Shown one piece after another: positions 39,906 through 41,702 of a stretch of DNA of 64,000 bases (its first letter is position 1; the number at the start of each line of letters is the position of its first letter). The DNA comes from a virus. Lineage: Duplodnaviria > Caudoviricetes. The stretch covers positions 128,001-192,000 of the IMG/VR virus record IMGVR_UViG_3300042997_002652; one strand, 5' to 3'. The notes beneath the pieces were generated by a model. That model ran no database searches. It saw nothing but the letters and a program-made list of their open reading frames with translations, and was not told the DNA's origin. The translations under genes were made by a program, and so were the position numbers.

Positions 39906-40991
39906 TTACTTTCTTAGTAGTGGAGGAATGCCAGCGCGTGATACTTTAAATCCAAAAGCTTTAGCGTTCTTTCTAAGTGTATCAGGTTTTATATCCACTG
40001 TCAAGGCTGTTTTAAACCTTGGATCATTTTTTTCTTTTTCACTTGGAATGTAACCTGATGCAGACTCATTTGTTTCGGCTTTAGCTAATCTATCATAGTA
40101 GTTAGGAAATTCTTTTAAATGATCTAACGCGATTTCTTTAGCTACTTGTTTATTGGTAGTATGTTCTAACTCAACTCGTATTCCTTTGTTCAATTGTTGT
40201 ATTAGTTGGTTAACAGGTACTGAATGCTTTTTTGCTAGTTCGTGTACTGTTAATGTGGGTTTGTCTAACTGATCAGCTTCTTCTATACTAAGAGACTTAC
40301 TATGTAGTTTATCTCTTAATGAGTATAATGCAGTAATGCCACCTTGTGTTCTTAATGCTTTATATGACAAGTTTTCAGGTGAAAATTCTCCACCTTTGTC
40401 TAATCCTGCTTGCCGATAGCGTTTTACTAAAGATATCGCATCATTTACTTTATCTAAGTCTTTTGATTTAAGTGTTAATTCTATTAGCTTAGCCAACTTT
40501 TCAAATTTAGCTTTAGTTTCTTTATGATCTAGATTAGCTTTGCTTTTCTTAGGAAAGTGTATCCATTCGTTATTCAATACACTATATTCGCCTAATGACC
40601 GCACTGGTTTCTTTACATCTTGTACATATAATTCTACAGGAACACCATGAACAGTAATATCATGAGAATCGTTATACAATGTTTTTTTAGCAGTAAAAAG
40701 TTCTTGATAAACTTCATCATTGGATAGATTGCTAAAATCAACTAAAATGTGTAAATCTAAATCAGAATGCGGTGTATAGCTAAATGCTGCGTTAGACCCC
40801 GATATCGTAATATCATCTACATCTAATTGACTAACACCAAGTTCTTGTAAGAAATCTTTTGCTATTACTATTAGTTGTTCTCTAACTTCTGGATCTAATT
40901 GGTCATCGTTCCAAAGAGCAGGGTTAAGTTCATCGTGAAACTTAACTGCATCTGATAGACTGAAATCTGTTAATTCTGTTATTAATACCAT
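39906..40991 (-). CDS. Pol-beta-superfamily nucleotidyltransferase with C-terminal EH..../IALDH domain
   Basis: SGSNA...SDLDLH, ELYVQD; GIRVELEHT...AKEIALDHL...YY; start moved out of the terminator; TAAATA at 41002-40997. Confidence 0.75.
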   Translation of the reverse strand: MVLITELTDFSLSDAVKFHDELNPALWNDDQLDPEVREQLIVIAKDFLQELGVSQLDVDDITISGSNAAFSYTPHSDLDLHILVDFSNLSNDEVYQELFTAKKTLYNDSHDITVHGVPVELYVQDVKKPVRSLGEYSVLNNEWIHFPKKSKANLDHKETKAKFEKLAKLIELTLKSKDLDKVNDAISLVKRYRQAGLDKGGEFSPENLSYKALRTQGGITALYSLRDKLHSKSLSIEEADQLDKPTLTVHELAKKHSVPVNQLIQQLNKGIRVELEHTTNKQVAKEIALDHLKEFPNYYDRLAKAETNESASGYIPSEKEKNDPRFKTALTVDIKPDTLRKNAKAFGFKVSRAGIPPLLRK

Positions 40992-41010
40992 ACTACTATT
41001 TAGTATAGAT

Positions 41011-41036
41011 AAAAAGAAAGGGAGCATAAAGCTCCC
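41011..41036 (-). terminator. terminator closing the tmRNA transcript
   Basis: GGGAGC-TTTAT-GCTCCC followed by TTTCTTTTT. Confidence 0.75.
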
Positions 41037-41039
41037 CTC

Positions 41040-41372
41040 TTAGTTGTTTGATAACAAGGTAACCAGCCCCGTGAAGCTTACGCCGCTAGGCGAATATCTT
41101 CAAGTGCGAACTCATCGTTTGCGTTTACTTTTTTGCTTCTTTAACCGAGAAACTCCCAGTCCTTAAAGGTGTTCTGCGTTCACCTATTCTCCACATACCT
41201 TCAGTTGTTTGGCGAATCCAAATCATCCCCATCAAAAGAGTACTATAAAGAACTACCTAATCCCCTTTCAGTAATTTACCATCGCGGTCAACAGGCGGAA
41301 CGATGTAATACTCTTTTGGTGGAGATGCCGGGGTTCGAACCCGGGTACAAACTTCCTATCTCATGCTTCAAC
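41040..41372 (-). ncRNA. ssrA: circularly permuted (two-piece) tmRNA
   Basis: Acceptor piece (~41372-41317): AAGCATG..., T-arm CCGGG-TTCGAAC-CCCGG, CATCTCC-A-CCA. Intervening segment 41316-41231. Coding piece from GGGGATGATTTGGATTCG (41230), tag ANDEFALEDIRLAA* at 41122-41078. G3:U70 present. Outer ends approximate. Confidence 0.92.
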
Positions 41373-41529
41373 GAATTTCTTTTTTAGCAGCGTCATAAAA
41401 GCTGCTTGATGTTTTAGTATCAGCTTGTTTTATCAAGCATCTACCACAACAACTTCCAATTAGTTTTGCTAACTCAGGTTGTCTTTTGATATCTTGTTCT
41501 CTAATGTTATTACAGATACATAATATCAT
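41368..41529 (-). CDS. Bfd-like (bacterioferritin-associated ferredoxin) small protein (not in ORF track)
   Basis: MILCICNNIREQDI...GSCCGRCL, 53 aa, GGGAG SD, TAAATA at 41553-41548. Confidence 0.7.
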   Translation of the reverse strand: MILCICNNIREQDIKRQPELAKLIGSCCGRCLIKQADTKTSSSFYDAAKKEIR

Positions 41530-41546
41530 AAAACTCCCTTATTATT

Positions 41547-41702
41547 CTATTTAGCTGGTTGAGAAGCCTCTAGAACTTCGTTAGAAGCTTCTACCCAAGC
41601 TTTGATAGTTTCATTTTCACTGATCTTATTACTGAAATTATCTACTACCCACTTGCATGTGTCAATACTTTTGGAGTGATATCCAGGTAAGTTAACAATC
41701 AT
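41547..41702 (-). CDS. hypothetical protein, 51 aa (MIVNLPG...)
   Basis: TAATG coupling to the upstream ORF. Confidence 0.6.
   Translation of the reverse strand: MIVNLPGYHSKSIDTCKWVVDNFSNKISENETIKAWVEASNEVLEASQPAK

Follow-up and report, generated by a model that had tools for sequence, protein, structure and literature searches.

The stretch of viral DNA analyzed here (the window: 64,000 nucleotides, positions 128001-192000 of a 266,967-bp IMG/VR record) carries, on its minus strand, a real and complete gene for a circularly permuted, two-piece tmRNA, as a preceding sequence-only reading had proposed. A tmRNA releases stalled ribosomes and marks their incomplete proteins for degradation. Three lines of evidence agree on this phage-borne gene with a tag of its own. 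ARAGORN calls a permuted tmRNA (flag tmRNA*) at 40987-41409, the sole gene it calls in the window, and returns the same tag that had been read by eye, ANDEFALEDIRLAA followed by a stop. The generic Rfam model of permuted tmRNAs, RF04321, is matched along its whole length (model positions 1-213 of 213) and gives 78.9 bits (E 1.9e-13), where 47 is the gathering score. Finally, the segment from the acceptor stem through the spacer folds with -36.4 kcal/mol (z = -4.84), and none of 200 shuffled sequences folded equally well. To judge by its sequence, the gene is probably functional as well.

In the 5' to 3' direction of the minus strand, the T arm is followed by the 3' strand of the acceptor stem with its CCA, the spacer, the 5' strand of the acceptor stem and the tag frame; direct reading places the T arm, CATCTCC-A-CCA, GGGGATG, the tag and the terminator exactly where the sequence-only reading had located them. 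The acceptor piece opens with a 5' tail (41348-41377) that, in the Rfam alignments, holds the 3'-side strands of helix P2, namely, AUUC (41376-41373), GCAUG (41366-41362) and GUUUG (41352-41348). The earlier 5' limit of the gene, 41372, has to be moved because these P2 strands run further 5', to at least 41377 in the RF04321 alignment and to 41413 in the RF01850 alignment. The T arm (41328-41344) consists of the stem CCGGG (41344-41340) / CCCGG (41332-41328) and the loop UUCGAAC, and leads into the acceptor 3' end (41317-41327), with CAUCUCC (41327-41321), the discriminator A41320 and an encoded CCA (41319-41317), so that the acceptor piece is predicted to end at 41317. The intervening segment of 86 nt (41231-41316) contains no open reading frame and is predicted to be removed on maturation; it is bracketed by a perfect 10-bp inverted repeat (41318-41309 / 41242-41233), which would form a spacer-closing stem stacked onto the acceptor stem. 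Both the length of the segment and the repeat were verified by direct reading, as was the pairing of GGGGATG with CATCTCC in 7 of 7 positions. The resulting 7-bp acceptor stem includes G3:U70, which together with the discriminator A matches the identity features of an alanine acceptor.

The coding piece starts with the acceptor 5' strand GGGGAUG (41224-41230), where G41230 is the predicted RNase P site. The D-loop analogue AUUUGGAUUCGC and the 5'-side P2 strands occupy 41186-41223, and helix P2 consists of three short blocks that join the 5' tail of the acceptor piece to the coding piece: GUUUG with CAAAC (41211-41207), GCAUG with UAUGU (41197-41193), and AUUC with GAAU (41189-41186). Two tandem hairpins follow (41143-41185), H1 (41185-41181 / 41171-41167, with a 9-nt loop) and H2 (41161-41154 / 41150-41143); a pseudoknot sought in this region, at the position of pseudoknot 1, was not found. 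The tag frame (41078-41122) runs from the alanine resume codon GCA at 41122, which is preceded by the usual sequence context in the RF01850 alignment, through a degron end ...AA to TAA at 41078. Behind it lies an H-type pseudoknot (41041-41072) formed by S1, ACGGGG (41072-41067) / CCUUGU (41059-41054), and S2, UGGUU (41065-41061) / AACUA (41045-41041), and then an intrinsic terminator (41008-41039), with a stem at 41039-41017 of 9 bp, 5 of them G-C, and a T run. The earlier statement that the coding part is too short for pseudoknots 2 to 4 is right inasmuch as the full set is absent, but one pseudoknot, supported by covariation, does follow the tag.

Comparison with related tmRNAs supports selection on structure for the acceptor stem, the T stem, the closing stem, H1, H2, the pseudoknot stems and the terminator. 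G3:U70 is present in all 17 parsed sequences, and the T stem keeps its pairing among the relatives despite differences in stem sequence. Between the window and its closest relative, the viral locus L089, P2 pairing survives changes from U-A to U-G and from G-U to G-C. An equivalent of the closing stem, 12-18 bp long and different in sequence, is found in 11 of 15 parsable phage relatives and in two bacterial permuted tmRNAs; in the relatives it begins at the CCA and stops 1-2 nt short of G1. The view that the spacer is closed by a stem in the manner of a processing precursor is thus upheld, the pairing being kept by different sequences. H1 and H2, again with different stem sequences, recur in L089, L002, L105, L053, L056 and L048 according to per-sequence folds, which recovered both hairpins where RNAalifold, run on a MAFFT alignment, had missed them because of misalignment; in bacterial beta-type copies and in some phage copies, a smaller element takes their place. 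RNAalifold did recover S1 of the post-tag pseudoknot and covariation of the terminator stems, and column counts for the two pseudoknot stems find the pairing kept in 8-11 of 11 sequences, CG/UA and GC/AU swaps included.

The spacers of related tmRNAs are variable in other respects. In L029 (3460-3774) and L094 (3698-4016), CCA and G1 are separated by spacers of just 5 and 9 nt, and a closing stem is absent. The tmRNA at L047:3336-4000 has a spacer of approximately 340 nt that holds an open reading frame beginning MRIKELTE; the spacer in L051 contains a tRNA-shaped element (L051:3041-3121; 'tRNA-???' in ARAGORN) whose acceptor stem is the spacer-closing stem; and a spacer segment in L093 (2836-2928) matches the skipping-rope RNA motif RF02924 with 46.8 bits, above the threshold of 36.7.

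The assignment of the RNA to a bacterial lineage is less straightforward. Among the lineage-specific Rfam models, that of the betaproteobacterial two-piece tmRNA, RF01850, fits best, being aligned end to end (1-331 of 331; E 3.6e-19) with 64.9 bits against a curated threshold of 84, followed by the alphaproteobacterial RF01849 (28.5 bits against 50, covering the tRNA-like domain only) and the cyanobacterial RF01851 (22 bits against 70). Hence, of the Rfam tmRNA models, which the sequence-only reading had suggested as a check, the generic one recognizes the gene, whereas the beta, alpha and cyano models all stay under their curated thresholds. The end-to-end alignment also disposes of the notion of a compact tmRNA: the RNA is not smaller than beta-type bacterial two-piece tmRNAs. 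It shares with the betaproteobacterial form (RF01850; Sharkady and Williams 2004, as cited in PMC9004378 and PMC11915505) the gene order, the three-part P2, the closing stem, the post-tag pseudoknot with its CCUUGU-containing loop, the terminator and an ANDE...LAA tag, but its P2 is shorter, its tag is four residues longer, and two hairpins stand where the bacterial copies have a small pseudoknot 1 region.

The tag itself combines these affinities. Its start, ANDE-F-A-L, resembles the tags ANDERFALAA, ANDENFALAA and ANDEHFAIAA of the fetched beta-type bacterial examples. For its longer C-terminal half, E-D-I-R-LAA, the match is with ANDNYYTEELRLAA, AANDDYYEGLRLAA and ANDDAFYGDLKLAA, the tags found in the closest relatives among phages. 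Other relatives have ANDEAFALAA and further variants; nearly all of these tags end in AA and most in LAA. Overall, the tags of the lineage are diverse and often 13-14 residues long, with the N-terminal AND and the C-terminal LAA as the constant parts. A mosaic origin of the window tag, with an L002-like 5' half and an L089-like 3' half, was considered and dropped because L089 is the closest relative in 5 of 7 segments. Among the fetched phage tmRNAs, L087, L053, L048 and L051 pass the gathering score of RF01849, and L002, L005 and L058 score as beta-type; L058 and the four alpha-type copies adjoin the same DUF5661 phage gene as the window tmRNA. Approximately 2.7 kb upstream of the tmRNA in L058, a COG2908 RNA motif was detected (L058:872-916; RF02939, 69 bits against a threshold of 58.7).

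Upstream of the tmRNA, the preceding transcription unit is ended by a terminator at 41923-41895, and the nearest promoter-like site is a sigma-70-like candidate on the minus strand (41637-41665; TTGACA-17-GATAAT, 11 of 12 positions), approximately 260 nt from the tmRNA. It is a consensus match only, in a region with 2 such sites against 4.1 expected in shuffled sequences. Between this candidate and the tmRNA lies a minus-strand ORF of 53 codons (41368-41529) with a CxC...CxxC arrangement of cysteines (MILCICNN...GSCCGRC), which we take to resemble a Bfd-type 2Fe-2S domain; even at E 10, Pfam gives no match for it, and homologues are lacking in the fetched loci. The ORF ends with codons that span the outermost P2 strand, and its stop (41370-41368) lies just 3' of that strand. 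In 11 of 17 phage tmRNA genes, a T4-late-like motif, (T/A)AAATA, is located 44-60 nt upstream of the T stem, against a background expectation of 0.033 per interval. At the equivalent place of the tmRNA studied here, the motif is degenerate (CTAAAAAA), and the T4 late promoter motif TATAAATA occurs in the whole window no more often than by chance (7 against 11 expected). The action late in infection that had been suggested for this tmRNA is not borne out by these signals; by the same signals, late expression is plausible for the tmRNAs of the relatives.

A feature that sets the window apart is found where P2 meets the T arm. About 45 relatives were parsed, and nearly all read UCGA(C/U) ... GAC at this place, where the window has UCGCC ... 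UAC. C41212 stands in for an otherwise invariant A, and U41347 for a nucleotide that is G in 43 relatives; both substitutions are unique to the window among the relatives parsed, where the single exception to GAC before the T stem is the CAC of L051. Of the conserved tandem G.A/A.G junction (UCGAC ... GAC), which is no formal criterion of the RF04321 family, the window keeps the G.A pair, the other pair being C.U. These positions are presumably the tandem G.A/A.G pairs that are contacted by SmpB. The double change next to the SmpB-binding region could therefore weaken the function of the RNA, and at the extreme, the gene would be a decaying copy, recognizable but rendered non-working by this very change, a reading with which the scores under threshold on all three lineage-specific models and the degenerate upstream motif would also fit. 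However, all helices are intact, the tag frame is open and ends with a proper stop and a terminator, and the generic RF04321 score is well above its threshold. Moreover, both partners are altered although they are about 135 nt apart in the gene, which makes a sequencing error less likely than a real change, one that may have been compensated, and the joint alteration of both partners in a non-canonical pair looks like compensation, not decay. We consider a crippled copy very improbable.

The carrier is an uncultured giant myophage of the broad group that includes Sinorhizobium phage Phosso, Vibrio phage 2.275.O and the Pseudomonas PA5oct phages. The record has a uniform GC content of 33-39% (about 36%) and encodes a Gp23-type, that is, T4-type, major capsid protein (E 4.6e-100) that is 66-73% identical to those of Phosso, 2.275.O, the PA5oct group and 350-kb Escherichia phages. 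These phages, the closest cultured ones by capsid, have their hosts among the Alpha- and Gammaproteobacteria. From the tmRNA, the record extends for at least 98 kb in both directions, and the neighbors of the tmRNA are phage genes, for an HNH endonuclease, an ATPase, a small P-loop kinase and, immediately downstream on the same strand (39906-40991), a 361-aa protein with a DUF5661 and an IF2_N-like domain (phrog_36119), a frequent neighbor of tmRNAs in related phages. Neither a tRNA gene nor an integrase was found in the 266,967 bp. SmpB was not found in the record either, which is 76% complete by CheckV and might lack such a gene for that reason. With blastn, the tmRNA locus has no match in the INPHARED phage genome collection.

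The relatives of this tmRNA are found almost entirely in viral DNA. A search with the downstream DUF5661 gene yielded 80 related viral loci; in 19 of them, the gene is preceded on its own strand by a permuted tmRNA. Whole-contig searches located a permuted tmRNA in 16 of 17 large related contigs, including all seven that are at least 90% complete. SmpB is absent from all 18 related records searched, these 17 contigs and Phosso. Signatures of the lineage were scanned, as exact patterns, against a bacterial collection of one genome per species (185,579 species, 596 billion bases). The signature of the post-tag pseudoknot occurs in 31 viral contigs against one bacterial contig, which is 7.3 kb long and comes from a metagenome-assembled genome (MAG), and that of the P2 tail in 28 viral contigs against none from bacteria. 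Judged by these scans, the lineage is widespread among phages but goes unseen in bacterial sequences at such similarity, a statement about exact patterns that leaves room for more distant relatives in hosts. An 18-nt tag-coding pattern was discarded as a marker: its 17 matches in bacterial genomes equal the chance expectation and include no tmRNA by ARAGORN, and two of its five viral matches (L003 and L004) are likewise due to chance. Among 151 sampled Burkholderiales genomes, only three strongly permuted tmRNAs were detected; their tags are related but their sequences are distant, the phage profile giving them 54-99 bits and the phage copies 84-321.

These observations bear directly on whether the tmRNA might belong to a bacterial chromosome flanking a prophage, or be a fragment kept for integration into ssrA. 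IMG/VR does label the record 'provirus', and tmRNA genes are common integration sites (PMC4383910). But a complete gene is present, well inside the record and amid phage genes, the record has no integrase, related tmRNA genes adjoin the same phage gene in other viral contigs, and the signatures are missing from all of the bacterial species genomes save the single MAG contig. A host gene or an attachment-site remnant is already contradicted by this evidence, and we give it next to no credence: the tmRNA is clearly a phage gene.

Phage tmRNAs as such are not new. Lists of them go back to the Bxz1 group and Bacillus phage G (PMC4131195), and a 2025 tmRNA database includes 79 bacteriophage sequences (PMC11915505). 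How often the permuted form occurs in phages, a question that the sequence-only reading had left to others, was answered by Buchholz et al. in 2022, who found it in 53 of 133 unique phage tmRNAs, mostly from aquatic sources (PMC9004378). Two-piece phage tmRNAs have thus been described, and the locus adds one more member to a documented class. The one-piece tmRNAs of the Bxz1 group and Bacillus phage G (PMC4131195) are similarly carried without smpB but differ in their unpermuted gene order and in the phyla of their hosts. Methylophilales phage Melnitz and the pelagimyophages, T4-like phages of aquatic origin (PMC9004378), are closer in kind, being myophages with a T4-type capsid that encode a permuted ssrA with its own tag, for which the same roles have been proposed. 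However, their genes are of the alphaproteobacterial type, some with a glutamine riboswitch, whereas the best subtype for the window is beta, and a search of its locus with Rfam models found no riboswitch; furthermore, the carrier, with at least 267 kb, belongs to the Phosso/PA5oct-like giant group.

The nearest cultured phages are the Sinorhizobium jumbo phages AP-J-162 (PMC11242549) and Phosso (PV764938.1), with 72.6% amino acid identity in the capsid protein and 71% in ClpP. They differ in a genome size of approximately 470 kb, a GC content of 47% (AP-J-162) against about 36%, and 44-66 tRNA genes where the record of the window has none. The tmRNA of L089, the closest relative, is situated directly behind at least 14 tRNA genes (L089:1-2479). 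One tmRNA and several Clp genes were reported for AP-J-162, with no link drawn between them (PMC11242549). In Phosso, we identified a permuted tmRNA match (PV764938.1:349596-350198; RF04321, 113 bits) in a gap without an annotated feature; it spans 603 nt with a long spacer, which is probably why ARAGORN misses it.

By homology with known tmRNAs, the following mode of action can be proposed. A single precursor would be transcribed, starting at a promoter that lies upstream of 41413 and ending at the terminator near 41012. With the spacer-closing stem stacked on the acceptor stem, cleavage by RNase P would expose G41230 as the 5' end of a coding piece of approximately 215 nt, and trimming from the 3' side as far as the encoded CCA (41317) would leave an acceptor piece of approximately 60-95 nt. 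The acceptor stem and P2 would keep the two pieces together. The alanyl-tRNA synthetase of the host would charge the tmRNA via G3:U70, and the SmpB and EF-Tu of the host would bring it to ribosomes stalled on broken mRNAs, the phage providing the RNA but not SmpB. Translation would resume at GCA 41122 and append ANDEFALEDIRLAA, the LAA end of which would serve as a degron for ClpXP. The probable benefit to the phage is that ribosomes are kept free during the mRNA breakdown of infection and that truncated products are fed to ClpXP, itself phage-encoded. Here we infer the processing sites, charging, tagging, timing and benefit. The overall reading, that the locus is a working phage copy of a two-piece tmRNA gene, we hold with considerable confidence.

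Another possible role starts from SmpB. Because the phage has none, its RNA must share the SmpB of the host, and conceivably, the phage RNA displaces the host tmRNA on this protein, so that the longer phage tag alters the fate or the degradation rate of the tagged products, or host trans-translation is damped. The confinement of the lineage almost entirely to viral DNA would be compatible with such a competitor, as would tags that are diverse, often 13-14 residues long, and constant only in the AND and LAA ends. There is also a precedent on record, as cited in PMC4131195 and PMC11915505, in the phage tmRNA of DS6A, which comprises the tRNA domain only and inhibits the host tmRNA, and Buchholz et al., who discuss ribosome rescue and selective tagging as the two roles of phage tmRNAs, raise the latter as a possibility (PMC9004378). 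A pure SmpB decoy would, however, need neither the full tag frame nor the resume context nor the LAA end, all of which are conserved. Furthermore, long AND...LAA tags are presumably much like ordinary alphaproteobacterial tags such as that of Caulobacter. Altogether, displacement or re-routing of the host tmRNA seems unlikely, and a phage tmRNA working in ribosome rescue is the reading that we retain.

The phage also encodes the protease subunits to which such a tag would be directed. Outside the window, on the minus strand of the same record, lie genes for a full-length ClpX (G000:C1:24067-25242; TIGR00382 score 480 bits, cut-off 370.75) with the N-terminal CxxC...CxxC zinc domain, GYVG, the RKN loop and the IGF loop, and for ClpP (G000:C1:19189-19734; 270 bits on PF00574); SspB was not found in the record. 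In the relatives, the two genes are in the same order, 4-7 kb apart, and clpX is present in 5 and clpP in 6 of 7 near-complete related genomes; Phosso carries both, in this order and with this spacing, and a ClpX homologue is also found in Bacillus phage G. A tag ending in LAA is the classic ClpXP degron. Through the co-occurrence of this tag with ClpX and ClpP, the phage would supply both the writer and the reader of the tag; because the tmRNA is nearly universal in the clade, a statistical link between tmRNA and ClpXP cannot be drawn.

It is tempting to go further and to regard the tmRNA, a diversifying lineage maintained by giant phages rather than borrowed from hosts, and the phage ClpX and ClpP as a phage-owned 'tag and destroy' module that needs only the SmpB of the host. 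The phage would then write its own, often lengthened degron on the products of stalled ribosomes and furnish the protease that reads it, and C41212/U41347 would be an adaptation of the SmpB-binding junction. We put this forward as a tentative possibility, on balance more doubtful than probable. The phage-only lineage, the co-carried ClpXP and the paired change at the junction are leads rather than results.

Taken together, these findings outline a clade of uncultured phages with genomes of 330-365 kb that almost always carry a tmRNA, never SmpB, and usually a complete ClpX and ClpP, with tmRNA sequences that are essentially unseen in bacterial genomes, a wider pattern that may merit the attention of specialists. 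This pattern makes testable the old question of whether phage tmRNAs top up ribosome rescue or control which proteins get destroyed. All three genes are also present in Sinorhizobium phage Phosso, a cultured relative with a tractable host.
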